In this document: positions 5,085 through 62,591 of the stretch, piece by piece
Numbering within the stretch: the stretch's first letter is position 1
Layout of the letters: each line of letters starts with the position of its first letter
Origin: Candidatus Collierbacteria bacterium RIFOXYD2_FULL_45_13
Lineage (GTDB): Bacteria > Patescibacteriota > Microgenomatia > UBA1400 > MFAQ01
DNA length: 64,000 nt
Reading direction: 5' to 3'
Assembly (NCBI GenBank): GCA_001774685.1
Contig: MFAS01000001.1
Span: forward strand, 607,557 to 671,556
Notes under the pieces: model-generated
Databases searched by the model: none
What the model was told of the DNA's origin: nothing
What the model saw: only the letters and a program-made list of their open reading frames with translations
Translations under genes and position numbers: made by a program

Positions 5085-5142
5085 ATATAGGTTCTTATCT
5101 CGCAAACTTAAAAAAATCAAAATATCGTAGAAAGGAGGCTAA

Positions 5143-5790
5143 ATGTCCTGGAATCTTAAGCAAAACGAGCGCGAACGCCGAGAAAGAGAAGCCGAGGAAG
5201 ACGCCCGGGAAGAGGAGTACTTTCGGGAACTCCGTCACGAGCGTCACAGCCATCGCCGACCCAAAGAACCGATATGGCGTATATACCTCTTTATCATCTT
5301 GGCAGTGAGCATGTCCACCTTCGGACTGACCTCGTATTATTATCCGGAGTTGCTACAACCGCGGCCAACGCGAACTACTCCAGAAAATCTACCTTCCACC
5401 TTTGAATTGACGCCCTCCTTGGCTGTTTCACCCCAGCTAACCGAACCGCCTACCGTGGAAAATATCGTTCAGGACACAGTTAGTGATCAGGTCTGGAGCT
5501 ATGTTCCAATCGTGGTGAATGGATATGTGCAGGCTTTCTTCATGTGGATGCCCGGAGATTCGATAAATGCTCCGTATCTGGCCAACCTCCCCCTCTCGAA
5601 GCAACTCGACTGCTCACCAGAGCACCTCATCGTTCAGGACATACCAGACTCAGCTGCCACGGTGTATCTAATTAGTACTGGTCAGACGGAGGACGTGACG
5701 GTGTCAATCTTCCCAGGCGAAATTTCGTCGGTCACTCAGATCGCCTTTGTTTGTCAGCCAGGAGAGGTCTTCTCTCTTCGCTGGAATTAA
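5143..5790 (+). CDS. Hypothetical bitopic membrane protein: highly charged cytoplasmic N-terminus, one TM helix, Pro-rich linker and a ~110-aa extracytoplasmic domain
   Basis: RERREREAEEDAREEEYFRELRHERHSHRRPKEP, then the TM helix IWRIYLFIILAVSMSTFGLTSYYY, then a Pro/Thr-rich stretch. It has a strong RBS and its own promoter, and a rho-independent terminator follows. Confidence 0.6.
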   Translation: MSWNLKQNERERREREAEEDAREEEYFRELRHERHSHRRPKEPIWRIYLFIILAVSMSTFGLTSYYYPELLQPRPTRTTPENLPSTFELTPSLAVSPQLTEPPTVENIVQDTVSDQVWSYVPIVVNGYVQAFFMWMPGDSINAPYLANLPLSKQLDCSPEHLIVQDIPDSAATVYLISTGQTEDVTVSIFPGEISSVTQIAFVCQPGEVFSLRWN

Positions 5791-5794
5791 CTTT

Positions 5795-5821
5795 AAAGCC
5801 CGCCATTCCGGCGGGCTTTTG
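5795..5821 (+). terminator. Rho-independent terminator (GCCCGCC-attcc-GGCGGGC followed by TTTT)
   Basis: A perfect 7-bp GC stem (5798-5804 / 5810-5816) followed by a T-run. Confidence 0.7.
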
Positions 5822-5843
5822 CGTTATAATCTCCTAACTTAGA

Positions 5844-9573: not shown

Positions 9574-10278
9574 ATGTCCGAAACCTTACAGATAAACTCG
9601 GTTACCAAAAGCTTCGGCAGGCTAGTCGCTGTCAGTGGTGTTTCTCTGCAAGTGAAGCCCGGCACGGTTTACGCCCTAATCGGTCCAAACGGTTCCGGTA
9701 AAACCACTCTTGTTAACTGCATCGTTGGACTTCTCAAGCCGGATAAGGGGGAGGTGTTAATTAACGGGATAGATATTCAAAAAAAGCCAATCACCGCAAA
9801 ACATCTTTTTTCATATATTTCCGACAATCCGGCCATTTATCCCTATCTCTCCGGTTTAGAGTTTATCCGACTTAGCGCCAAGCTGCACGGTTTAAGTCAA
9901 GATGAGACAGAGAATAAACTCACCGAACTAAAGAAGATTTTTCCTATCGAAGATATTTTGGAATCCCGTACCGAAAGCTACTCACGTGGAAACATCGAAA
10001 AAACCGCTTTTCTTTCGGCCATCATTGCTAACCCTAAGCTTCTGGTAATCGACGAACCCATTGTCGGACTTGATCCTACCAGCGTGGAAACTTTTGGAGA
10101 GTCTCTTCGTCAGCTTACCCGTAGTGGTTCTTCGGTTTTTCTGTCCACCCACACCCTCAGTTTTGTCAAAAAGTATGCTGATATGGTTGGAATCATTCAC
10201 CGCGGCAAGCTGATACGAGAGATGAAGGTTGGGCCAAAGACTAATCTGGAAGAAATATATCTTGAGGAAACCTCTTAA
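9574..10278 (+). CDS. ABC transporter ATP-binding protein
   Basis: Walker A GPNGSGKTT, a signature-like YSRGNIEKT and Walker B LLVIDEP. Confidence 0.85.
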   Translation: MSETLQINSVTKSFGRLVAVSGVSLQVKPGTVYALIGPNGSGKTTLVNCIVGLLKPDKGEVLINGIDIQKKPITAKHLFSYISDNPAIYPYLSGLEFIRLSAKLHGLSQDETENKLTELKKIFPIEDILESRTESYSRGNIEKTAFLSAIIANPKLLVIDEPIVGLDPTSVETFGESLRQLTRSGSSVFLSTHTLSFVKKYADMVGIIHRGKLIREMKVGPKTNLEEIYLEETS

Positions 10279-10279
10279 T

Positions 10280-11860
10280 ATGATAGCCATCCGGGAATTC
10301 GTAAAACTCGACTACCTCGCCTTTAAGGATTGGTTTCGGAAGCAAACTATTTCCAAAGTGATTATCGCCACAGTATATCTTCTGGTACTGATTGGAGTTG
10401 GTTTGGGGATCTACTTTTGGTCAGACGCTTTTATCAAATACGTTGTCCCTTACGAATCTTTCGGACTACTAACTTCACAATATATCCTGAGGGGTTCTTT
10501 TACCTTACTCATGTGGGTTGGTATCTTCAGCTCTCTCATTTCCACCCTCACCTTTCTGCTAACTCCGGACAGGCACCTGGATTTACTACTCACCTTTCCT
10601 CTCTCCACACTATCAATTTCTCTTAAGGCTTCAGCCAGATCGGCTCTCATCAATTTATCCCTGTTTCTTATATCGGTGTTTCCTTTGGTGTTGGCCTTTA
10701 CCAAAAACTTTTTTGGTTCACTTCTTTCTCTAATACTTCTTGTCATTATCACCCAAACGTTCGGCTCCTCTCTCGGTTATCTTTTTTATTTCTTGTTTCG
10801 GAAAAAATATGGCCGATTAATCGCTATCACCTTCGGAGTTTCCATGATTCTTGCTACCGGGATCTTGCTCAAGGTTACTTTTCCACCCCAGCTCAGGCTT
10901 TTGGATGATATTCCAGCCGAAACTTTTTCTGCCTTTTTTAACAGTTTACCCCTGATTAGGGATTGTTGGCTATCTGGCGAGATAATAAAATCCACAGACG
11001 GTTTATTTGGTCCATCGGTATTGTTTTATGCATTCACTCTCGTGACTATAATGATCTCTCTCCTGACGCAGATATGTCTTTTTGTTCCTTGCCGGCAATC
11101 TCAAAGAGTTCACACTTCGTCTACTATCAAGATAAAGTCAAAAATTGGCCACTTCCGCCGAATCTCTCTAATTTCCAAAGACCTTCTTTCGTTTTTTAGA
11201 AATCCTAAAGATGTCAGCTACCTCCTTTTCTTGATCATTATGATCGTATCTTTTTTTGGACTATTTTCCCGAGGTTACCTGGCCAGAGGAGTCACTGAAA
11301 AGTATCTGGTAGACGCTGTGGTTTTTTCCTTCGCTTGGCTGATATTCTTTTCGGGTACCTACGTAATCCGACTTTCTTATCCACTCATGGTCAATGAGGG
11401 TCAGTCAAAATGGTGGTTGTTTACCCTGCCCATAGCTTCTACACGGATACTTCAGTCAAAGGTCTCATCCTCTTTAATTTTGAGTTTACCTCTACTATCT
11501 TTGGGTTTGCTTGAGTGGCAGATACTTCCCTTTAGTGTAAACACTGCCTTTTTTGTTCTTCTTAGTGTCATTGGCATTACCTCATTGGCTGTCGCTCTTC
11601 CGCTAATTGGCTCTCTTTTTCTTGACTTTACGGCTTGTTACAATCCCGAAAAGGCCAGCACTAGCCTCAGTGGCTTACTTTCGGTTGTTTTTGTCTGCTC
11701 GGTGGGGGCTTTGGGAGGATATTTGGCCTCGCAGTTCATGGGTGTGGCCATTAGCCCAGCCACCGCCATCAACGCCTTCCTCACCGAGAGTCTGGTGGTC
11801 ACAGCCTTTGTCTGGTTTTTGGCCATACGTTACTTAGAAAGATACAAGCTGGATATTTAG
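10280..11860 (+). CDS. ABC transporter permease-like polytopic membrane protein
   Basis: At least ten predicted TM helices. The start is 2 nt after the ATPase stop codon. The longer ORF-track start at 10229 overlaps the ATPase gene. Confidence 0.6.
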   Translation: MIAIREFVKLDYLAFKDWFRKQTISKVIIATVYLLVLIGVGLGIYFWSDAFIKYVVPYESFGLLTSQYILRGSFTLLMWVGIFSSLISTLTFLLTPDRHLDLLLTFPLSTLSISLKASARSALINLSLFLISVFPLVLAFTKNFFGSLLSLILLVIITQTFGSSLGYLFYFLFRKKYGRLIAITFGVSMILATGILLKVTFPPQLRLLDDIPAETFSAFFNSLPLIRDCWLSGEIIKSTDGLFGPSVLFYAFTLVTIMISLLTQICLFVPCRQSQRVHTSSTIKIKSKIGHFRRISLISKDLLSFFRNPKDVSYLLFLIIMIVSFFGLFSRGYLARGVTEKYLVDAVVFSFAWLIFFSGTYVIRLSYPLMVNEGQSKWWLFTLPIASTRILQSKVSSSLILSLPLLSLGLLEWQILPFSVNTAFFVLLSVIGITSLAVALPLIGSLFLDFTACYNPEKASTSLSGLLSVVFVCSVGALGGYLASQFMGVAISPATAINAFLTESLVVTAFVWFLAIRYLERYKLDI

Positions 11861-52438: not shown

Positions 52439-53570
52439 TATTTATCAGGCTCATCTTATTTCTCATTTCTTCAACCAAGCGGACCATAAACCGGACGTTA
52501 TGAATCGAGGCTAGCCGATAATAGGTAAGTTCCTTGGATTTATAGAGATGATTAAGATATCCACGCGTGTACCCGGATTGACAGGTAAAGCAATCACAGC
52601 CCTCCATGATCACCGATTTATCATTGATGAACTGTGTGTTGCTGATATTTAACCTTCCATTGGAAAAATCGCTTTCAAAATTGTCACCCCGTAGCTCACC
52701 GTAATAAAGTGCCCCATTTCTCGCCAGTCTCGTGGGTGCTACGCAATCAAACATATCAACGCCGCACTTGATGATGTCTACAATATTTTGCGGATCGCGT
52801 CCCAAACCCATGGTGTATATCGGCTTACCTTTTGGTAATAAGTGCTTGATCCAACCGACTACTTCTTGGGTCGCTTCCATGTTGTAGCCTATGGTCTCTC
52901 CGCCCAAAGCTATGCCACTAAAGGGCATTGAGGAAATAAACTTTGCCGCCTCCTCTCTCATTTCTCTATCCGTACTCCCTTGAATAATGCCAAACAATGC
53001 CTGGTCAGCCCCTTGCGCACTCTTTCTACCATTTTCCTCCCATCTTCTGACGCATCTTTCTGCCCAGCGGTGTGTCCTGTTGAGAGCTTCTCTGACATAT
53101 TTTCTTTCAATTTTGTCAGGGGTACATTCATCGAAGGCCATAATAATATCGGCACCTAAATCCCTTTGAATATCCATTGATCTTTCAGGGGTAAACCTAT
53201 GCATTTGACCGTCTAGGTGGGATTTAAAAGTTACCCCATCATCATCAATTTTCGAAAGAGATTCACCTTTAGCCCCAAGACCAAGTGAAAAAACCTGGAA
53301 ACCGCCGCTATCGGTTAGCATTGGTCCATTCCAATTCATGAACTTCTGGACTCCACCCATCTCAGACACAGTCTTTTCTCCTGGTCGTAAAAATAGATGG
53401 TAAGTATTGGCAAGCACAATCTCGGCTTTTGTGCCATGAATATCCTGCCCATCCAGAGCTTTTACGGTAGCAGCCGTTCCCACCGGCATAAAAACCGGCG
53501 TCTGCACCTCACCGTGATCGGTAGTCATTTTTCCTGTTCCGTCGGTATTTTTTGTGAACTTGAATGCCAT
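52431..53570 (-). CDS. tgt: Queuine tRNA-ribosyltransferase
   Basis: TPVFMPVGT, catalytic-region LTDSGGFQVFSL, and zinc site CDCFTCQ...H. The start was set at MAFKFTK; the longer ORF to 53708 has a non-conserved extension. Confidence 0.85.
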   Translation of the reverse strand: MAFKFTKNTDGTGKMTTDHGEVQTPVFMPVGTAATVKALDGQDIHGTKAEIVLANTYHLFLRPGEKTVSEMGGVQKFMNWNGPMLTDSGGFQVFSLGLGAKGESLSKIDDDGVTFKSHLDGQMHRFTPERSMDIQRDLGADIIMAFDECTPDKIERKYVREALNRTHRWAERCVRRWEENGRKSAQGADQALFGIIQGSTDREMREEAAKFISSMPFSGIALGGETIGYNMEATQEVVGWIKHLLPKGKPIYTMGLGRDPQNIVDIIKCGVDMFDCVAPTRLARNGALYYGELRGDNFESDFSNGRLNISNTQFINDKSVIMEGCDCFTCQSGYTRGYLNHLYKSKELTYYRLASIHNVRFMVRLVEEMRNKMSLINNE

Positions 53571-53719
53571 AAATGTTTTATGTTGGACTCGAAGTCTTCG
53601 GTCTCGTCTGCTGACTCGCCTCTGACCGCGCCTCAGCGCCAGTCGCGCTTCCGGCAGGCTCGATTCCCACAGAATTATCAAATTAGATTTTGTTCCGCAA
53701 GGGAACAATATCTAATTAG

Positions 53720-53792
53720 AGCCAAGGGTGGGACTCGAACCCACTACCTGCGGTTTACGATACCGCCGCTCTACCTGCTGAGCTACCTTGGC
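53720..53792 (-). tRNA. tRNA-Thr (anticodon CGT)
   Basis: Reverse complement folds as GCCAAGG-TA-GCTC-AGCAGGTA-GAGC-G-GCGGT-ATCGTAA-ACCGC-AGGTA-GTGGG-TTCGAGT-CCCAC-CCTTGGC-T. Confidence 0.8.
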
Positions 53793-53871
53793 TACACAGC
53801 TATTTTACCCGAAATACAGCCAGATATTGAAGAATGCTAAAATATCCCATACTTTGACAACCGGAGGAAAT

Positions 53872-54159
53872 ATGGCTATCAGACCGCTTGAGATTATTGT
53901 CAATTTGACTCGGGATCAGTTTGTCTATATTGTGCTTCTGAATGGCAACCTAGATGTGAAATCATCCGAAGGTGACGAGATGGTCATTGGAGGAGCACAA
54001 GACCATCGTAAATATGGTCCAGCAGGCACCGAAGATGGTTCGTATCATTTCTTCAGAACTTACATTACCTATCAGGGACATGACCTGTTTGCACGAGCCA
54101 ACTTCGCCTCTCACGATGACGGCAAAACCTATCGGGGGATCTTGTTCGTCAATATGTAA
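53872..54159 (+). CDS. Hypothetical small protein (95 aa), paralog 1 of a tandem pair
   Basis: RBS GGAGGA 3 nt before the ATG. It is homologous to the downstream ORF (IVNLTRDQF vs IVSLTREEL; YQGHDLFARANFASHDGKTY vs YQGEYLWAKANLLSYDGQTF). Confidence 0.55.
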   Translation: MAIRPLEIIVNLTRDQFVYIVLLNGNLDVKSSEGDEMVIGGAQDHRKYGPAGTEDGSYHFFRTYITYQGHDLFARANFASHDDGKTYRGILFVNM

Positions 54160-54188
54160 TCTGACCAGTAATTACAAAAGGAGAAGCA

Positions 54189-54487
54189 ATGGATTCCAAA
54201 CATTATCTTTAATTGTTTCCCTCACCCGTGAGGAGCTGATTGGTTTGATCATTGACAACAAACCGGTGGTAACCAAGACAGAAGACAAGCCAATTACCTT
54301 GTCAGGTTCTGGAACGTATACAAATGAACCTGATTATAAGAATGGCGGAGTCACCCACATTTTTTTCACCAACATCGACTATCAAGGTGAGTATCTGTGG
54401 GCCAAGGCAAATCTACTTTCCTACGATGGACAAACGTTCGTCGGAAACATTATCTGCGAACGTTATCCAGACAGTATCTCCGAGTAA
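54189..54487 (+). pseudogene. Paralog 2 of the tandem pair with an apparent 1-nt frameshift immediately after its ATG
   Basis: The ATG at 54189 (RBS AAAGGAGAAG upstream) runs into a stop after 7 codons, while the homologous reading frame continues in the -1 frame to 54487. Inserting a single nucleotide after ATG G restores M-x-FQTLSLIVSLTREEL, collinear with paralog 1. Confidence 0.5.
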
Positions 54488-56029: not shown

Positions 56030-56386
56030 TTGAATACGGTCTACCCGTGTAAACACTGTAAGCAAGAAGTCGATTCCAACTTCAAGCACTGCCCCGAATG
56101 TGGAGAAGCGCAGGATCATTCCGGCGAAGAACACTTCAATATCTTCAAGAGTTTCCGAGGCGGCGGAGTCTACAACATGACCTATGGCGCCACCATCCTA
56201 ACTTGGGAAGACATCGTAGAGCTTGCGAAAGAGCAGGCTGGTACTGGGTACTTCATTGGCTCGTTCATTCCTGCAAAACAGGGACAAGAGCACCATATCC
56301 AAATCGTCAAGTGGATTCCCGTAGTCAACGGTGAACCTGGACTCGATCAGGGCGCGCAAAACATCGAGATCACCAATCTCGAATAA
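56030..56386 (+). CDS. Hypothetical zinc-ribbon protein (CxxC...CxxC)
   Basis: A GTG start preceded by AAGGAGAG. CKHCKQEV...CPECGE. The ORF-track ATG at 55952 lacks an RBS. Confidence 0.45.
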   Translation: MNTVYPCKHCKQEVDSNFKHCPECGEAQDHSGEEHFNIFKSFRGGGVYNMTYGATILTWEDIVELAKEQAGTGYFIGSFIPAKQGQEHHIQIVKWIPVVNGEPGLDQGAQNIEITNLE

Positions 56387-56440
56387 GCACCCCCAACCAC
56401 AAAGAGGAAATCTCCTTGTGTGAGGGGGATTTTCTTTGGT

Positions 56441-56800
56441 AAAAACTTGCGAGGCTGGTGGGAAAGATCCGTCTTCGGTCGAACTACATTCGCCTCAATA
56501 ACGGCCTCGCCAGCCTCGTTATGAAACTGCTTCCGACTGTTCAAATCCCATATTTGGCAAATAAAAAACTCCACATAAAGGAGAGCTTTTCACTTGCGAG
56601 GCTGACGGGATTCCCCTCAGTAACCCCGCCTCGGCGGAATTCTTCGGGACCTGTCTCGCCAAAACCGTTACGGGTTTGGCTCCGACATTCGAATCCCATA
56701 TTTGGCCATAAAAAAATCCCTCCACAAGGGAAGGATTTTTCATGGCGAGGCTGACGGGATTCGAACCCGTGACCTTCTCCGTGAAGTGGCGATGACAACC
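56441..56800. repeat. Three tandem degenerate copies (~150-bp period) of a tRNA-Asp 3'-end-derived att core (GCGAGGCTG[A/G][C/T]GGGA...), each followed by a conserved ATCCCATATTTGGC...hairpin-T-run module
   Basis: Cores begin at 56449, 56596 and 56745. The third copy (56745-56784) matches the 3' 40 nt of tRNA-Asp (62518-62591) with compensatory T-stem changes. Confidence 0.7.
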
Positions 56801-57005
56801 ATCAATACATGACTAAGTTCAGTATAGACTAAATTTCTAAGAAATAGAGAACCTGCAAGAGCAATCTAGCCTCAAATCAGCCCTCTAAATAGACCTATAA
56901 CTTGACATTTACCCTATATCATGGTATAATTACGCTCATAAGTTGGGAATGTCCTAACTATTCTTTAAAACAAAAATCCATTCTAAACAACCAACGGAGG
57001 TAGTA

Positions 57006-57827
57006 ATGAATTCGCTTGTTCCAGTTAGTGACCCTGATGTCAAATTTGATTTTTCAGATGTTGACTTCGACAAGTCCTTTCCCTCAAAGTCCACTGTCAT
57101 TTTGAGCACTATGTGTGCAAATGTGGCTGTAATGGGCGTGCCAGGACTCAACGCTGTTCGTGTTGTCGCTCGCGGTAACCACTCCACTGAACTCGATATT
57201 CAAACCAGTGGTTCAGAAATGAAGATTTCTGCACCTTTGGACTATGGTCAATCCATGAATACGGGCGGGAATGTTTTCATTTCTGGCTCTGGCATTAATA
57301 CCATCAATGGCGTGCTCTATATGAACGGACGCGCGGTCGATACGAGCAACCCGATGATGATGCTCGTCATGGTTCCCGTCGGCACCTCAATTAAGGTTGG
57401 ACTCGTGCTCGGTGTGAAAGTGGTCATCCGTGGCGTACAAGGTGAACTCGAAGCCAAGCTTCAGGGTGTCACCAACGTTGAGGCAGATTACCTCACTAGC
57501 GCAGACATTCATGTCTCCGGCACGGGAAGCTTCAAATGCCAAACGATTGAAGGAGACAGCCTCACTGTCAAAATCAGTGGCATGGGCAATTCGACAGTCG
57601 AATCGGGCAAAGTCACTACGTTCCAGGCACAAGTTTCTGGTATGGGTGGCATATCCTTTGGTGGCGAAGCCGTCAACGCCGACCTGTCTGTCAGTGGCAT
57701 GGGTTCGATTAACCTCTTTGCCTGCACTGGACAGTTGAAGAAAAAGAAATCTGGAATGGGAAATATCAGCGTATTGAAGGACATGTCTGCCAAATCTGGC
57801 AAATCATCTGGATTCAGCGACTGGTAA
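57006..57827 (+). CDS. Beta-rich repeat protein, putative adhesin-like (DUF2807/DUF4097-type 'GIN' repeats)
   Basis: Repeated SG(M/S)G-x-(I/V) strands (VSGTGSF, ISGMGNS, VSGMGGI, VSGMGSI, SGMGNI). The RBS is GGAGG. Confidence 0.5.
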   Translation: MNSLVPVSDPDVKFDFSDVDFDKSFPSKSTVILSTMCANVAVMGVPGLNAVRVVARGNHSTELDIQTSGSEMKISAPLDYGQSMNTGGNVFISGSGINTINGVLYMNGRAVDTSNPMMMLVMVPVGTSIKVGLVLGVKVVIRGVQGELEAKLQGVTNVEADYLTSADIHVSGTGSFKCQTIEGDSLTVKISGMGNSTVESGKVTTFQAQVSGMGGISFGGEAVNADLSVSGMGSINLFACTGQLKKKKSGMGNISVLKDMSAKSGKSSGFSDW

Positions 57828-57837
57828 GTAGTATCGC

Positions 57838-57892
57838 CTCTCAGCGAGAAAAGGAAAGTCTTCCTTCTCTCGAAGGGAGGCTTTTTTTTGCA
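57838..57892 (+). terminator. Rho-independent terminator (GC-rich compound hairpin followed by T8)
   Basis: GCCTCTC...GGGAGGC followed by TTTTTTTT. Confidence 0.55.
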
Positions 57893-57899
57893 AAAATTA

Positions 57900-58514
57900 T
57901 TAATTCTCAGTGAGATATATACCGTCTAGGGCGTTTTCTGTACAAAGCTTGTGCAACCAAACACGACCATCTTTTTCTTCTATTAACTCGTAATACTCAC
58001 GTCCACGAGTTGGACTGACAAAAGGGTCAATTTCCATAATTCGTTTCAAGGTTTTTCCTCTGAACCTACCAAAATCTTCTTTTGGGTTAAATATCAAGAG
58101 TCGGCTATTAATATCATATTTGGGACTAAGGTCTTCAACTATCTCAGAATTATTGATGGGCACCCTGTTTCCAGTTATCGAGTCGATGACTGCATAAGAT
58201 ATGCAACTTGTACCACAACCCCACGAGACAAATCTAAAGTGCCCAGCAAAGTTCGGCCCCTTAGCGACTTGTTCTGTGACTGTCATTTTGAACCCACTTA
58301 GCCATTCATCTTTAGAGAAAACGACCGCGGACGGTTTGTCGATATATGTGTTTACTGGATGTAGCCCTGTCGCCTTCACAACCTCATCGCAAACAGATTG
58401 AGATATTGATGTCTCTTGTTTTGCCACATCACCAATCCTTTCATTACCTATTGCAAAAAAAAGGCCAACAAGTATTAAAATTACTGCCGAAATAAGTATG
58501 CAAAATTTAGTCAT
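57900..58514 (-). CDS. Hypothetical membrane-anchored protein (204 aa)
   Basis: N-terminal TM helix FCILISAVILILVGLFFAI. Element cargo. Confidence 0.45.
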   Translation of the reverse strand: MTKFCILISAVILILVGLFFAIGNERIGDVAKQETSISQSVCDEVVKATGLHPVNTYIDKPSAVVFSKDEWLSGFKMTVTEQVAKGPNFAGHFRFVSWGCGTSCISYAVIDSITGNRVPINNSEIVEDLSPKYDINSRLLIFNPKEDFGRFRGKTLKRIMEIDPFVSPTRGREYYELIEEKDGRVWLHKLCTENALDGIYLTEN

Positions 58515-58517
58515 TGT

Positions 58518-58739
58518 TTAGTAAGGCAAGTCATCAATCGCCTCCATAACCTGTTGATTTTGATAATCTTCATAACTCTGTGTGTATGGTCTCCTGTAAA
58601 GAATTAGGAAACAGATTGCAAAAATAACTCCTACAACTAGTACTGTGATTTTAATATTTTCGACAATTTCAAACTTTCTCCTAGATTTCTCAGCTTCGGC
58701 AACCCGAAAGGCATGCTCTTCCCACTGCTTTATATTCAT
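58518..58739 (-). CDS. Hypothetical small membrane protein (73 aa)
   Basis: One central TM helix. It is co-oriented with the upstream gene. Confidence 0.4.
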   Translation of the reverse strand: MNIKQWEEHAFRVAEAEKSRRKFEIVENIKITVLVVGVIFAICFLILYRRPYTQSYEDYQNQQVMEAIDDLPY

Positions 58740-58848
58740 CTATCAAAATTCTATTTTGTATCTACAATTTTGTCAAACACAAAACTATGCCTAAATATAG
58801 CGTCTAACGCTCTGTATATGTGACTCGAAAGTCCATAAGGTTGAGAGG

Positions 58849-59058
58849 ATGAGAGAGTACAAAATATCTAGAAATGTTGGTAAAAGAATCAGAGTAATCC
58901 GCCGGAAACAGGCACTTACTCAGGAAGAGTTATCTGGAAGACTAAATATCCATGTCTCAACACTTGGCAGAATAGAGAGGGGTGAAAGTAATCCACCCAT
59001 ACAAACAATAAACCGAATCGCCCAGGCCCTAAAGGTAAAACCAAAGGAACTATTTTAA
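58849..59058 (+). CDS. XRE-family helix-turn-helix transcriptional regulator
   Basis: LTQEELSGRLNIHVSTLGRIERGESNP. Confidence 0.8.
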   Translation: MREYKISRNVGKRIRVIRRKQALTQEELSGRLNIHVSTLGRIERGESNPPIQTINRIAQALKVKPKELF

Positions 59059-59158
59059 ATTTTCCTTATTTGGTCAATACGCACTTTTTACCCATTGATA
59101 CGATTTGATATATTCGGTATACTCAGCGGGTACTTTAATCTAATCCAAGGAGGTCATC

Positions 59159-59932
59159 ATGAGCCAATGGCTAGAAACCCATTGTGGTTGGTGTCATACC
59201 ACCATTGCTTATCTACCAGAATGGTCACATATACCCGAGTACTGCAAATATTGTAATGAGTGGCTGGAAAAAGACTGTCTCAATCCGCACTGTCCTGGCA
59301 GAATAAAATATAAAGTTTACTGGTCAAATATTCACGACTACTGTACCTGCAAAGGCTGGTACGAAATCAAATGTTCCCATTGCTACCAGTACTTTAGTGT
59401 CAACGACCAATGGGACAACAAGCCAGAGTATTGTTCCAGTTGTCGCGAATGGAAAGAAAAAGCTTGTGCTAATCGTCACTGCAATGGCAAAGTCCGATAC
59501 AAAGATTTTTGGGATAACAAACCGGACTACTGCACCTGCAAAGGTTGGTATGAGGTTCGCTGTAGCAACTCAAACTGTCGCAATACTATTTCTGTTCACT
59601 CCTCTTGGTCAAATGTGCCTGAGCACTGCAAGGACTGTAATTCTTGGCATGAAAAGGCATGTGCCACCAGTGGGTGTACCGAAAAAGTTTCTTATAAACC
59701 ATCTTGGAGTAATCCACCCGAGTACTGTGATACCTGTCGAAAGTTGGGTGGTAGTCGTAGAGACCCATGGAATGACCCCAGAAACGTAGTGGAAGGAATC
59801 GGCCCCAATGCAAGTGGAGTTTGGGGTCAAAAAATCATGGGTGGCCCCGATAAGGGGTTACATCGTGGCTATGACCCAGACAAAATTCGTGAATTTGAGG
59901 CTGGAAAAGATTATGAGAGGAGAAAGCGCTGA
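59159..59932 (+). CDS. Cysteine-rich repeat protein (about six tandem ~33-aa W-x-N-x-P-[ED]-Y-C...C...W...K-x-C units); novel putative zinc-binding repeat protein
   Basis: Repeats such as WSHIPEYCKYCNEWLEKDCLNPHC, WDNKPEYCSSCREWKEKACANRHC, WSNVPEHCKDCNSWHEKACATSGC and WSNPPEYCDTCRK. The RBS is AAGGAGG. A strong terminator follows. Confidence 0.6.
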   Translation: MSQWLETHCGWCHTTIAYLPEWSHIPEYCKYCNEWLEKDCLNPHCPGRIKYKVYWSNIHDYCTCKGWYEIKCSHCYQYFSVNDQWDNKPEYCSSCREWKEKACANRHCNGKVRYKDFWDNKPDYCTCKGWYEVRCSNSNCRNTISVHSSWSNVPEHCKDCNSWHEKACATSGCTEKVSYKPSWSNPPEYCDTCRKLGGSRRDPWNDPRNVVEGIGPNASGVWGQKIMGGPDKGLHRGYDPDKIREFEAGKDYERRKR

Positions 59933-59960
59933 GACCCGAAAGGGTCTCTCTTTTTGTTTT
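59931..59960 (+). terminator. Rho-independent terminator (GAGACCC-gaaa-GGGTCTC followed by a T-rich run)
   Basis: A perfect 7-bp stem, GNRA-like loop and T-run. Confidence 0.7.
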
Positions 59961-59972
59961 ATAATACTAGCC

Positions 59973-60362
59973 ATGGATACCAATTATTTTTTGGACAACA
60001 AACTCGACTGCAACAAAGATAATCCTATTTATGTGGGATATTTGGCTGACCTAAAAGACCTATTTTTGGAAGTCCAAAAGCTGACTGAAGACAATAAAAC
60101 AGACGAAGCTAAGGATTTACTAATGGACAGTGAGGGAAAGTTCTCTCCAAATCTATACAATATTTCGGAGGAGATAAACGATATTTTTGTCGGTCAACTT
60201 AAAAATGAGACTATCGAGCTTTATATAAATTTTAGAAAATTTAACGAGGAACTATCCAGCGAAAGAGTTAACGACCTCACGGGGAGAGACCTAAATATAT
60301 CAATCAATAGAATTAAGCTTTTTTTGGCACAGGAATTGAGGCTAATAGATAACCTCAAGTAA
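59973..60362 (+). CDS. Hypothetical protein (129 aa)
   Basis: An ATG just after the terminator. The longer ORF-track start (59808) overlaps the Cys-rich gene and its terminator. Confidence 0.4.
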   Translation: MDTNYFLDNKLDCNKDNPIYVGYLADLKDLFLEVQKLTEDNKTDEAKDLLMDSEGKFSPNLYNISEEINDIFVGQLKNETIELYINFRKFNEELSSERVNDLTGRDLNISINRIKLFLAQELRLIDNLK

Positions 60363-61423
60363 AATCCTAAAAAAAATTATAAAAATATTTTACCTTTCAA
60401 AAGCATGGTGAGACCGAGCTTTTGGTATAGCTGTGGTACTAGCTTAGTGGGTAATTCTGTGCGGGGGGTCGAGTTTTTATAACTCAAACTGCAGGGAATA
60501 TTATGCGGAAAAATAAACACCCAAAATCTATCCCAAATTATAACAGCTTACGCATGAAGCTTATTAATATAAGTCATAATATCTTTGTTATATATCTTTT
60601 GTGCCTAATACTTGACACAAAAGCCACCTTGTACGACGTATGCGGTCATAAACCAATGAGGTGATATCTATATCAAAACATGTCATTTGGTAATTTTCCG
60701 CAAAAGCTCCAAATCTACAAAGGATTATATTTTAATTATCTCCGCTAATCGATTGTTTACTTAGTTACAATCTTTTTGTAGTAGTGTTAAGTTGAGACTT
60801 GCTTACGCAGACCTCCCCTTGAGTCTCGTGTTTTAGGCACGCGACTTGGACTAGAAATTGTACTTAGCAGACACAAGCGGTATTTATTGCCACGCAGCAT
60901 GGTGAAAAATACGAGGTCCAAGTGACAGCGCACTATAGCTAATGTACTGTGACTTAGCGACCCCGACCATGTTCGTAAAGTATTAAGCCGTTCGATTGTA
61001 GTTTAACCGGCTATTTACAGTTCTATATTAAGATTTTCTTCTTTTCTGTAACTTCCTTTACGACCTCCCCAGGACTGAGTTTCCTCCATGCCCTGACTAC
61101 GAATGGTTTATCCTATTGGGTTGTCGAATTTGCTTGTTGCCTTAAAGTTCTAGCTTTTGTGAGAATTAGTTTGTGAAACCAGTGGCACTCACGAGGACGG
61201 TTTTCATTCGACCTCTTTATAGGGAACCTGAGAGTTATTGAGTCTTTCTAAGCTTCCTAGAATGCATGTCGGCATATCTATAAGTCAATAGATAAAACTA
61301 AAACCATTCTGTCAACCCTATCAAAACATATCAGTTTTAAATTTCTCTTAACTTTAAGATAACGATGAATAAAAATGGTAGCCCTGAGGCAGTAGATTAG
61401 CCACAGAAAGCCTTTCAAATAAC

Positions 61424-62425
61424 TTATTTAAGATTGATATGTAAAGCAAGTGAACTGTTTGGGTCAAGCTCACATTTCACAACAAACCGACAATCATTTT
61501 TCATCTCATACTGAACAAAACTAAGTATCCGTTCCAATTTTTCTTTTGGTGATAGTCCTTGCGGAACAATTGTCGTTCCATTGAGAGAAATTGCCAAGTC
61601 ATAAACATTAAGATGGCTGTAAACAGTGTCTAAAATTCTTGTGTCAGTGTGGCGCATTAGTCGTCGTGCTTGACCATAGGGGACACCATCGCGAAGTAAG
61701 GTTGTGGCATAAACATGGCGCAAGCTGTGAACTCTGATTTTCTGTTTTATGTCCAACTTTTTGCAACCCCTAGTCATAGAATTTTGCAACATTTTTTCGC
61801 TTATTCTAAAAATCAAGCCACCCCTGTTAATTCTCGGCCTAAGCATTTTCAACATATCATTTGCGATGGGTAGTTTATCTCTGTGTCCACCTTTTCCAAA
61901 AACCCAAAAGGTTTTTTCTTCAAGATTAAAGTCATCGGCTTTGAGTCCACGAAGCTCAAAGTTTCTCAATCCAGATTTTGAGGCAAAAATTAGGCAATCT
62001 TTCGCCTCTCGTTTTTGTCGTCGTACTGCCTTGTTGTCATTTTTCAGCACCTCACATCCTGCCTCTATTATCATTTGGGCAGTCTCAAAGGGGACAATTT
62101 GTATTTCTTCTCTGTGTAGTTTTGGCAGTTTAACCTTTTGTCCCCAGTTTTCCGAAATACTTCCACCCTCAAAATGCCAAGAAATAAAAGCTCGAACTAC
62201 TTTTGAATCTGAAACCATGGAGCTTGGTTTCCACCCCAAGTCAGTGAGATAGGCAATATAGCCACGAAAAGTCTCTGGTGACAGTTCTGAGTTACCTAGG
62301 AATTTGGAAAGGCGAGTTAGTGTTTCTTTCTTACCCTCAATGGTTCTTTTTGTCATACCAGACTCAATCTCGCAAGAGAGTAGGTAATCAGCCATGGTTT
62401 TCTCGACATTAATACATGACGCCAT
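61424..62425 (-). CDS. int: Tyrosine-type site-specific recombinase/integrase
   Basis: The C-terminal catalytic box HSLRHVYATTLLRDGVPYGQARRLMRHTDTRILDTVYSH (R..H..R..Y), adjacent to tRNA-Asp. Confidence 0.85.
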   Translation of the reverse strand: MASCINVEKTMADYLLSCEIESGMTKRTIEGKKETLTRLSKFLGNSELSPETFRGYIAYLTDLGWKPSSMVSDSKVVRAFISWHFEGGSISENWGQKVKLPKLHREEIQIVPFETAQMIIEAGCEVLKNDNKAVRRQKREAKDCLIFASKSGLRNFELRGLKADDFNLEEKTFWVFGKGGHRDKLPIANDMLKMLRPRINRGGLIFRISEKMLQNSMTRGCKKLDIKQKIRVHSLRHVYATTLLRDGVPYGQARRLMRHTDTRILDTVYSHLNVYDLAISLNGTTIVPQGLSPKEKLERILSFVQYEMKNDCRFVVKCELDPNSSLALHINLK

Positions 62426-62517
62426 TGAGCGTTAATCATGTATCGAGGAGAAAAAATTGCTACCACGACACTAAATTGTTATTTTCTATAAAAAGATTGA
62501 TTTACCAATCTTTTTTG

Positions 62518-62591
62518 CGAGGCTGATGGGATTCGAACCCACGACCTTCTCCGTGACAGGGAGACGCGCTAACCAGCTGCGCTACAGCCCC
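62518..62591 (-). tRNA. tRNA-Asp (anticodon GTC)
   Basis: Reverse complement: GGGGCTG-TA-GCGC-AGCTGGTTA-GCGC-G-TCTCC-CTGTCAC-GGAGA-AGGTC-GTGGG-TTCGAAT-CCCAT-CAGCCTC-G. Confidence 0.85.

Follow-up and report, generated by a model that had tools for sequence, protein, structure and literature searches.

The tRNA-Asp locus

The DNA described here is a 64,000-nucleotide stretch, termed the window, of contig MFAS01000001.1 from Candidatus Collierbacteria bacterium RIFOXYD2_FULL_45_13; positions without further designation are those of the window, and sequences of relatives carry L numbers. Near one end of the window lies an intact tRNA-Asp(GTC) gene on the minus strand, found by ARAGORN at 62517-62591 and by Rfam over 62518-62591 with 70.2 bits. 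The gene does not encode CCA. An integrase gene is situated 91 nt from the tRNA 3' end on the same strand, and beyond it are a gene-free stretch, several cargo genes and a partial copy of the tRNA gene. The interval between the two tRNA sequences, here termed E1, is very probably a 5.7 kb integrative element (56785-62516) that was inserted at tRNA-Asp by its own simple integrase in the chromosome of this member of the Microgenomates (Candidate Phyla Radiation, CPR). Mobile elements of the CPR/Patescibacteria are poorly charted, and in genomes as tiny as these every insertion is conspicuous. A preliminary description of this DNA had already recognized the complete minus-strand tRNA gene and had proposed a tRNA-targeting integrative element. 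The proposal is borne out by empty sites in relatives, an outlier composition and a sister element in tRNA-Arg(TCT).

The partial tRNA copy (56745-56784, minus strand) was delimited by repeat comparison. It is in direct orientation relative to the tRNA-Asp 3' end (62517-62556, minus strand, repeat family D2), and 37 of the 40 nt are identical. The preliminary description reported this 40-nt copy of the tRNA 3' half in the same orientation, but did not mention the three mismatches. The copy spans anticodon position 35 to one base beyond the discriminator, and all three mismatches fall within the two T-stem strands. The functional tRNA-Asp has the T-stem GTGGG/CCCAT and the displaced copy has ACGGG/CCCGT, each with its own pairing kept. 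This is the pattern expected from two different functional tRNA-Asp lineages. A 24-nt degenerate core finds matches at the two repeat sites alone, where shuffled sequences predict 0.00. Neither ARAGORN nor Rfam calls a tRNA gene at 56745-56784, and no 5' half can be formed upstream; the distal copy is therefore a fragment and not a second tRNA, an alternative that the preliminary description had raised.

Both tRNA 3' ends are followed by terminators. The original tRNA-Asp terminator (56717-56735, terminator scan) comes after the displaced 3' half. Directly past the 3' end of the functional gene, an A/T-rich hairpin with a T-run (62490-62516, minus strand) can be read from the sequence, and this is a replacement terminator carried by the element. 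It is missing from the consensus terminator scan because its stem is GC-poor. The 5' part of tRNA-Asp is host-derived, and the 3' 40 nt, which form the integrase-proximal att junction, are element-supplied, as is the terminator at 62490-62516. The displaced original 3' half forms the distal att junction. The functional tRNA-Asp of this organism is thus a chimera with a 3' half from the element.

The E1 interior comprises 5,732 bp. Its GC content is 40.35%, the remainder of the window having 44.1%, and not one of 102 equally sized background windows is as low. Measured by tetranucleotide L1 distance, the interior stands at 0.225, compared with a background of 0.1285 ± 0.0157 (maximum 0.169), or ∼6 standard deviations above the mean. 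The compositional comparison of 56.8-62.5 kb with the flanks that the preliminary description had suggested thus places both measures outside all 102 background windows, and the interval is compositionally foreign.

Unoccupied sites in related Collierbacteria

Exact-protein look-ups find the same locus in Rifle-type groundwater metagenomes, one 1.08-Mb contig among them; SRR3989339, SRR2177986 and SRR5855240/42 are examples of Rifle runs in which the element is present. When the neighbouring PolX protein was scanned against GTDB representative genomes, the closest named organisms were Candidatus Collierbacteria, with 70-82% protein identity. L026 (Collierbacteria GWC2_44_18) and L013/L014 have the order TGT, tRNA-Thr, LysM protein, Zn-ribbon protein, tRNA-Asp, RRM protein, PolX. 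In these three the tRNA-Asp 3' end stands directly against the terminator of the homologue of a 144-aa Zn-ribbon gene (zn144). These are unoccupied sites with homologous flanks, in related species with ∼80% nucleotide identity to the window. The ancestral junction sequence is present in the window at 56384-56463, and its end is a 15-nt tRNA 3' copy (56449-56463); consequently, everything at 56464-62516 is extra relative to L026 and L013/L014. The integrase and the cargo are also absent in L027, L029, L030, L053, L069, L079, L116, L124, L133, L149 and L156. The tRNA-Thr to tRNA-Asp interval as a whole is variable among Collierbacteria.

These comparisons bear on a reading in which the locus is ancestral and variable, the tRNA fragment stems from the process that produced the short U units described below, and the integrase is a chromosomal Xer-type recombinase that is there by chance. 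It is true that tRNA 3' fragments arise here without an integrase (U2 and U3; L029, L030 and L053), and that the integrase is Xer-like by sequence. However, the 40-nt repeat begins in the anticodon loop and the U fragments begin in the T-loop, the complete 5.7 kb is missing from more than 10 relatives, the interval is foreign in composition, homologous integrases always lie directly past a tRNA 3' end (Asp or Arg), and in L016 a second tRNA copy marks the limit of the related element. An ancestral locus, already contradicted by the empty sites, is extremely improbable. The preliminary description had named two findings that would speak against an insertion, the same gene content in relatives and a second tRNA gene at the repeat; since relatives are without the locus genes and the repeat is only a partial copy, neither applies.

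The GTGGG/CCCAT T-stem carried by the element is the native tRNA-Asp type in most other Collierbacteria examined, and the displaced ACGGG/CCCGT T-stem was found, among those examined, in this species alone. This fits a history in which E1 may have resided in other Collierbacteria before it reached this genome.

The integrase and the crossover region

The integrase gene (61424-62425, minus strand), which the preliminary description had correctly assigned as a tyrosine integrase, is an open reading frame (ORF) of 333 aa. It matches PF00589 (3.2e-17), Xer models and PDB structures. The XerA, XerC and XerD models of NCBIfam cover residues 13-277. In the XerA alignment, positions 2-256 of the 263 model positions align to residues 13-274, and 12 residues precede the match. 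As the Xer models begin at residue 13, there is no room for an N-terminal arm-binding domain. A C-terminal extension of ∼58 aa continues beyond the Xer model. The catalytic residues R154, K178, H233, R236, H259 and Y269 were all located by motif; the RKHRH pentad and the tyrosine nucleophile are present, and the alignment with Brujita Gp33 takes in R, K, HxxR and H. Gp33 (5vfz, E = 2e-07) heads the nearest solved structures, followed by XerA, an XerC-like protein, IntI4 and XerD. The scores are far under the Xer equivalog cut-offs (XerA 90.7 of 220 bits, XerC 70 of 335 and XerD 63.7 of 330), and hence the protein is not a housekeeping Xer recombinase.

By its domain content the enzyme is a "simple" tyrosine recombinase, arm-less and Xer-like, with core-binding and catalytic domains only. 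This group includes Brujita Int, which carries out integration and excision without arm sites and drives phage integration (PMC8138268). The E1 integrase resembles the simple phage integrases of the Brujita type (Lunt and Hatfull, 2016, via PMC8138268) in having these two domains only, in the absence of an evident excisionase gene, and in being borne by a mobile element rather than serving as a chromosomal housekeeping enzyme. It differs in its low similarity to Gp33 (34 bits), in its C-terminal extension and in its host and type of element, there being no phage genome around it.

The crossover can be narrowed by the distribution of mismatches. The 14-nt block at 62543-62556 is the sole perfect shared block that adjoins the divergent 5' side, and it is made up of anticodon positions 35-38, the anticodon stem's 3' strand and the variable loop. 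Since the differences in the T-arm are found 3' of this block, strand exchange is placed on the anticodon-arm side; the exact crossover position would be somewhere within the shared block.

The most probable course of events is as follows. Recombination by the arm-less integrase joined the tRNA-Asp 3' half brought by the element to the tRNA-Asp gene of the chromosome, and strand exchange would have taken place inside the 14-nt block. The functional tRNA now consists of the host 5' part, the element 3' half (GUGGG/CCCAU) and the element terminator, and the original host 3' half (ACGGG/CCCGU) with its terminator has been displaced by 5.77 kb. Two ∼148-bp inserts of a T-loop class, U2 and U3, were already present at the site when E1 arrived, and the locus is therefore a tandem array.

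Integrase relatives and a sister element in tRNA-Arg

Relatives of the integrase form 5 clusters only in a word-indexed search of a 5.8-billion-protein index, and none was confirmed in a single-protein scan of GTDB representative genomes. Target and sequence identity go together in this small family. Integrases that are 74-91% identical are found on tRNA-Asp (L018 at 74%; L019 and L166 at 88-91%), and those that are 58-61% identical are found on tRNA-Arg(TCT) (L016/L017 at 58%; L165 at 61%). The homologous integrases always stand directly past a tRNA 3' end, that of tRNA-Asp in L003, L005, L019 and L166, and that of tRNA-Arg in L016 and L165. L165 starts in the anticodon arm of tRNA-Arg(TCT). 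In L019 the tRNA-integrase junction is 99% identical to that of E1, and a different gene follows past the integrase.

The closest parallel is found in L016. Here tRNA-Arg(TCT) is directly followed by the integrase, and 7.1 kb downstream the tRNA-Arg gene is present a second time in full. The 5' part of this second copy is identical, and paired T-stem changes are the sole difference. The L016 element thus has the anatomy of E1. Its cargo includes the Cys-rich protein (89% identical), the partner of this protein (62-69%) and an XRE gene, and the remaining cargo is different. Accordingly, tRNA-Arg is also a target of this element family, and the sister element documents a target switch from tRNA-Asp to tRNA-Arg(TCT) inside this small family. 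E1 and its tRNA-Arg(TCT) sister thus provide a natural pair for studies of simple-integrase retargeting, and possibly a basis on which genetic tools could be built for organisms that still have none.

E1 may be compared with the tRNA-targeting genomic islands and integrative elements mapped by Islander (Hudson, Lau and Williams, 2015, PMC4383910). It is like these islands in that the integrase is located by the tRNA 3' end, the split tRNA is restored by the island and a displaced 3' fragment lies at the far end; it is also sporadic among relatives and foreign in composition. It is unlike typical islands in its size (5.7 kb), its CPR host with a genome of ∼1.1 Mb, its arm-less integrase, and its lack of any recognizable function that belongs to a phage, to an integrative and conjugative element (ICE) or to an integrative and mobilizable element (IME). 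E1 is an ordinary type of element in an unusual host. Its identity block begins in the anticodon loop and continues through to the 3' end, which is also the case in sites of the anticodon-loop class; sublocation classes of tRNA-targeting integration sites were reportedly distinguished by Williams in 2002.

Gene content and mobility

E1 is cleanly delimited and minimal. As the preliminary description had stated, genes for phage structure and conjugation are absent: none matched among the E1 ORFs in Pfam, PHROGs and NCBIfam. Capsid, tail, terminase and lysis genes were not found with Pfam, and the PHROGs matches are confined to the integrase and the helix-turn-helix (HTH) regulator. For ICE/IME functions (type IV secretion, coupling protein, relaxase), none of the E1 ORFs gives a match in Pfam or NCBIfam. 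No known defence protein is present, PADLOC matching the HTH regulator alone through generic control-protein models. With no genes for replication, packaging or transfer, E1 would spread via a helper or by transformation-like routes.

Junctions were sought in a metagenome collection with a degenerate pattern that covers attL, attR, attB and attP alike, and at least 118 stretches were found. The reconstructed attP joins 62516 through the core to 56785 and contains ...AATCTTTTTTGCGAGGCTGATGGGATTCGAACCCACGACCTTCTCCGTGAAGTGGCGATGACAACC..., and the attB sequence contains ...GGATTTTTCATGGCGAGGCTGACGGGATTCGAACCCGTGACCTTCTCCGTGACAGGGAGACGCGC.... Several points tell against the integrative-element explanation. 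No circular attP-type junction is among the matches listed, and at least 8 attB-type sequences were found, none of which among the matches listed has the flanks of this species. All contigs with near-identical flanks (L001, L007, L008, L011 and L012) carry E1, and no same-species empty site was found among these or among the matches listed. No excisionase, replication or transfer function was matched in Pfam, PHROGs, NCBIfam or PADLOC, and the 1-kb gene-free stretch by the integrase gene could be decay. Moreover, with a family of 5 clusters, family-level conclusions are drawn from few loci. Three Logan contigs (L002, L004 and L010) that end inside the repeats were considered as signs of excision; this was rejected because the breaks coincide with points at which the tRNA-Asp/terminator sequences of co-occurring relatives diverge (shared k-mers).

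E1 might accordingly be a fixed, decaying remnant of a larger prophage or transferable island that has lost excision and has kept the integrase, a regulator and some cargo. The absence of structural, replication and transfer genes from E1, the gene-free stretch of 1,061 bp, which is without an RNA signal, and the failure to find attP or a same-species empty site among the matches listed would agree with this, and L018, whose integrase is 74% identical, has a tRNA-Asp cut after the anticodon stem, which suggests decay at such junctions. On the other hand, the integrase ORF is unbroken, has its full set of catalytic residues and is identical across metagenome samples, both att copies are intact, and the sister element in tRNA-Arg is likewise small (7.1 kb), with no structural phage genes found in it. 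Small size thus looks like a family trait and not the product of a recent deletion. A supposed truncation of the integrase in strain L011 was rejected, as it is a run of 94 N in the scaffold. The remnant interpretation is rather unlikely, and an E1 that arrived as a small integrative element is favoured; it may still be able to excise.

In L018 (1920-2080), the tRNA-Asp ends right after the anticodon stem and is joined to the region upstream of the integrase gene, and ARAGORN finds no tRNA there. This junction represents either a real gene disruption or decay, or a misassembly.

Cargo genes

The cargo list in the preliminary description holds for the XRE HTH regulator, the beta-repeat protein (which is a DUF2807 protein), the Cys-rich protein and the ORF-poor stretch. 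Its two small membrane proteins need amendment: one is indeed small (73 aa), and the other is a protein of 204 aa with a single N-terminal hydrophobic segment.

The DUF2807 (GIN-domain) beta-repeat protein (57006-57827, plus strand; 273 aa; PF10988, 8.1e-09) is preceded by a promoter at 56902-56930 that matches a sigma-70-like consensus at 12 of 12 positions. The genes for the 204-aa protein (57900-58514) and the 73-aa protein, with one hydrophobic segment (58518-58739), are on the minus strand and were taken from the ORF list. The 204-aa protein has no significant match in Pfam, PHROGs, NCBIfam or PADLOC, and the 73-aa protein has none in Pfam, PHROGs or PADLOC. Divergent from this two-gene operon, which has a promoter-like site at 58776-58748 (minus strand, 11 of 12 matches), is the gene for an XRE/Cro-C1-type HTH regulator of 69 aa (58849-59058, plus strand; PF01381, 8.1e-15; PHROG repressor families). 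The regulator gene between divergent promoters has the layout of a simple switch, and most likely the protein would control genes of the element.

Next is the gene for the Cys-rich protein of 257 aa (59159-59932, plus strand), which has six Cys4 zinc-ribbon-like repeats and a C-terminal beta domain. Its AlphaFold2 model (pLDDT 76, pTM 0.33) has no match to PDB folds at E ≤ 0.001, and no relatives were found in IMG/VR. Some homologues display additional N-terminal CxxCxGxG motifs of the DnaJ type. The adjacent gene (59973-60362, plus strand) encodes a predicted helical protein of 129 aa, which is 32% identical to its counterparts in L022/L023 and has an AlphaFold2 pLDDT of 58; it has no family match in Pfam, PHROGs, NCBIfam or PADLOC. 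The Cys-rich protein and its helical partner of ∼130 aa form a conserved pair with a conserved upstream region of ∼64 nt (window 59087-60362; L016 6773-8050; L020 4051-5367; L022 1488-2724), and the pair occurs in integrative elements as well as at ordinary chromosomal positions of CPR genomes. A terminator-like GC-rich hairpin (GAGACCC-GAAA-GGGTCTC plus T-run) is present at 59931-59948 between the two genes, and perhaps functions as an attenuator. Overall, the E1 cargo comprises a conserved two-gene module and three predicted envelope-associated proteins.

This raises the question of whether E1 is a mosaic in which the Cys-rich/partner pair (∼59087-60362) entered separately as an independently moving cassette. 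The pair has 81.5% DNA identity between E1 and L016, compared with 58% between the integrases. Relative to the integrase and XRE genes it is inverted, a conserved 120-bp non-coding block being on its other side, and homologous pairs occur in ordinary chromosome contexts by tatC or by an M23 peptidase gene and tsaE. The pair may move independently. A 25-nt inverted repeat, 80% complementary, brackets it (59088-59112 and 60669-60693), but a repeat of this quality is near chance among 124 reported pairs. In addition, there is no recombinase associated with the pair, and only two element copies are available for comparison. A separate entry of the pair is rather unlikely; mosaicism is in any case normal for islands and is compatible with an insertion of E1 by its own integrase.

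The ORF-poor stretch (60363-61423, 1,061 bp) has no ORF of 60 aa or more in the ORF list. Only 60522-60641 is conserved with the sister element in L016 (73%), and a 53-aa ORF over this block is not kept as an ORF there. The stretch has no Rfam match and no pseudogene similarity to the ORFs of relatives, and its predicted folding shows no unusual energy (z-scores -2.97 to +0.77).

Structured U modules beside the element

The least expected feature at the locus is an array of short modules, termed U, beyond the displaced tRNA half. The preliminary description had overlooked two shorter copies of the tRNA-Asp 3' end (56596-56613 and 56449-56463), and with these the tandem array of two older ∼148-bp inserts and the differing tRNA half borne by the element. 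U2 (56593-56709, minus strand) is a structured module of ∼117 nt with its own terminator and scores 95 bits with covariance model R1; its tail is the 18-nt tRNA-Asp 3' end copy at 56596-56613 (minus strand). U3 (56446-56560, minus strand, 92.9 bits) has as its tail the 15-nt copy, likewise on the minus strand, that marks the ancestral tRNA/flank junction of L026 and L014. The tRNA 3' copies of the array are 149 and 147 bp apart, each followed by a terminator. The U2 and U3 units are without an ORF, and their ∼110-nt bodies are homologous to each other. Identity to tRNA-Asp begins in the T-loop and not in the anticodon loop, and the U fragments are therefore footprints of an integration class other than that of E1.

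At tRNA-Asp, U units come just past the terminator in L030 (twice), L053, L124, L156 and L079; behind tRNA-Thr(CGT) they are present in L026, L030 and L124, and weakly in the window (53568-53681, minus strand). The copies outside the window are at 5721-5825, 5097-5211 and 3030-3140 in L030, 794-910 in L053, 463-578 and 2849-2965 in L124, 2410-2539 in L156, and 7007-7119 in L026. Comparison with empty sites, L026 for the flank in the window and L116 for L156, shows each unit to be an insertion.

The U consensus has four helices with compensatory changes. In 13 distinct copies 89% of the cells are paired, compared with 24-51% when partners are slid, and double changes are found at 16 of 23 pairs, compared with 9.0 ± 1.6 after shuffling, in an alignment that was fitted to the model, which favours structure. 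The original MAFFT alignment of six sequences gives 10 pairs with double changes versus 3.6 ± 1.4. In the sense of the tRNA, the order is a replacement tRNA 3' end with terminator, a head, two covarying hairpins and a tail. The 5' head is the reverse complement of the T-loop and 3' T-stem of the cognate tRNA. The Asp head is ATGGGATTCGAAC, and the Thr head, GTGGGA.../GTCGGAC..., follows the T-stem of the tRNA-Thr of each genome. At the 3' side, the copied tRNA 3' end forms the tail, and head and tail are both matched to the cognate tRNA (Asp or Thr).

No Rfam family matches the U module. Identities as signal recognition particle RNA, tRNA, transfer-messenger RNA or hammerhead were rejected, with no Rfam support and ARAGORN silent, and a tgt leader was rejected since the tRNA-Thr plus U segment of L026 is inverted relative to tgt.

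Two known systems offer partial parallels. The cis-mobilizable elements (CIMEs) of the ICESt1 family arise with tandem accretion at att sites (review, PMC5704250). The U array is similar in that site-specific insertions have followed one another at a single tRNA end and have left several att copies in a row, with the youngest, integrase-bearing element nearest the gene and the gene-less, att-flanked remnants U2 and U3 beyond it. U2 and U3 are each bounded by tRNA 3' copies; no integrase-bearing parent with U-type ends was found. The units also differ from CIMEs in being only ∼148 bp in length, uniform in architecture and structurally conserved with compensatory changes, in recurring in genomes without an integrase at the site, and in their T-loop start, which is unlike E1. 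The second parallel is mycobacteriophage Ms6, whose integrase targets the T-loop at tRNA-Ala (PMC1762012). In U as in sites of the Ms6 type, the tRNA is duplicated from the T-loop to the 3' end, the footprint of a T-loop crossover, but U has no integrase or other gene and carries an inverted T-loop/T-stem copy at its other end.

U may thus represent scars or miniature, CIME-like derivatives of elements that target the T-loop, or else an unrecognized small RNA or mobile module; the evidence accommodates either. That U is a new miniature, gene-less structured element associated with the tRNA T-loop, neither a passive att scar nor a known RNA family, is a speculative suggestion and on present evidence doubtful. 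Such a module could be mobilized in trans, or could act as a small RNA that mimics tRNA. Should the U modules be more than scars, they would make up a new class of structured elements linked to tRNAs.

Some U copies show further variation. In L124, the two copies at 463-578 and 2849-2965, one after tRNA-Thr and one after tRNA-Asp, share an identical hairpin region of ∼40 nt, and the Thr-site copy retains the Thr-type second hairpin, head and tail. This points to possible copying or gene conversion between U copies. In the L156 copy, the loop of one helix contains an additional hairpin of 40 nt as an insert. A palindromic insert of ∼40 nt, with start CCCGCCTG and end GCGGGCAGG, is present both in this U hairpin loop (L156 ∼2452-2491) and in a tRNA pseudo-5' half (L015 ∼316-352), and may be a tiny repeated palindromic element.

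Other insertions near the tRNA genes

A second kind of mobile insertion at tRNA-Asp, from the opposite side, is seen in L015 (1-420), where the sequence upstream of the tRNA gene has received a small GIY-YIG nuclease gene. The insert is flanked by a duplicated tRNA 5' half with promoter, and the duplicate is broken by GC-rich hairpins. Small GIY-YIG ORFs repeatedly adjoin tRNA genes in these CPR contigs, as in L016 (12196-12462) and L017 (493-780).

In another Collierbacteria species, the same hotspot has a 2.1-kb insert between tRNA 3' copies (L009 7680-9800, the same as in L079 and L133). An MvdD-type ATP-grasp gene is present in it together with a DUF6624 gene and one small ORF; it has no integrase, and looks like a cluster for a graspetide-type ribosomally synthesized and post-translationally modified peptide. 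L009 (ERZ4902915 NODE_784, here 9805-10873) was considered as an alternative occupant in the same species as the window, but it is probably a chimeric contig whose two parts meet inside the tRNA. The right part agrees with the window at 100% from the tRNA-Asp 3' end onward and the left part at ∼67%, and the RRM region of the true species, L079, is only 79% identical to the window.

Beside tRNA-Thr, the window contains tandem or overlapping paralogous small ORFs of 123 and 171 aa (53788-54487), and duplicated homologues of these are found in L029 (2316-3062).

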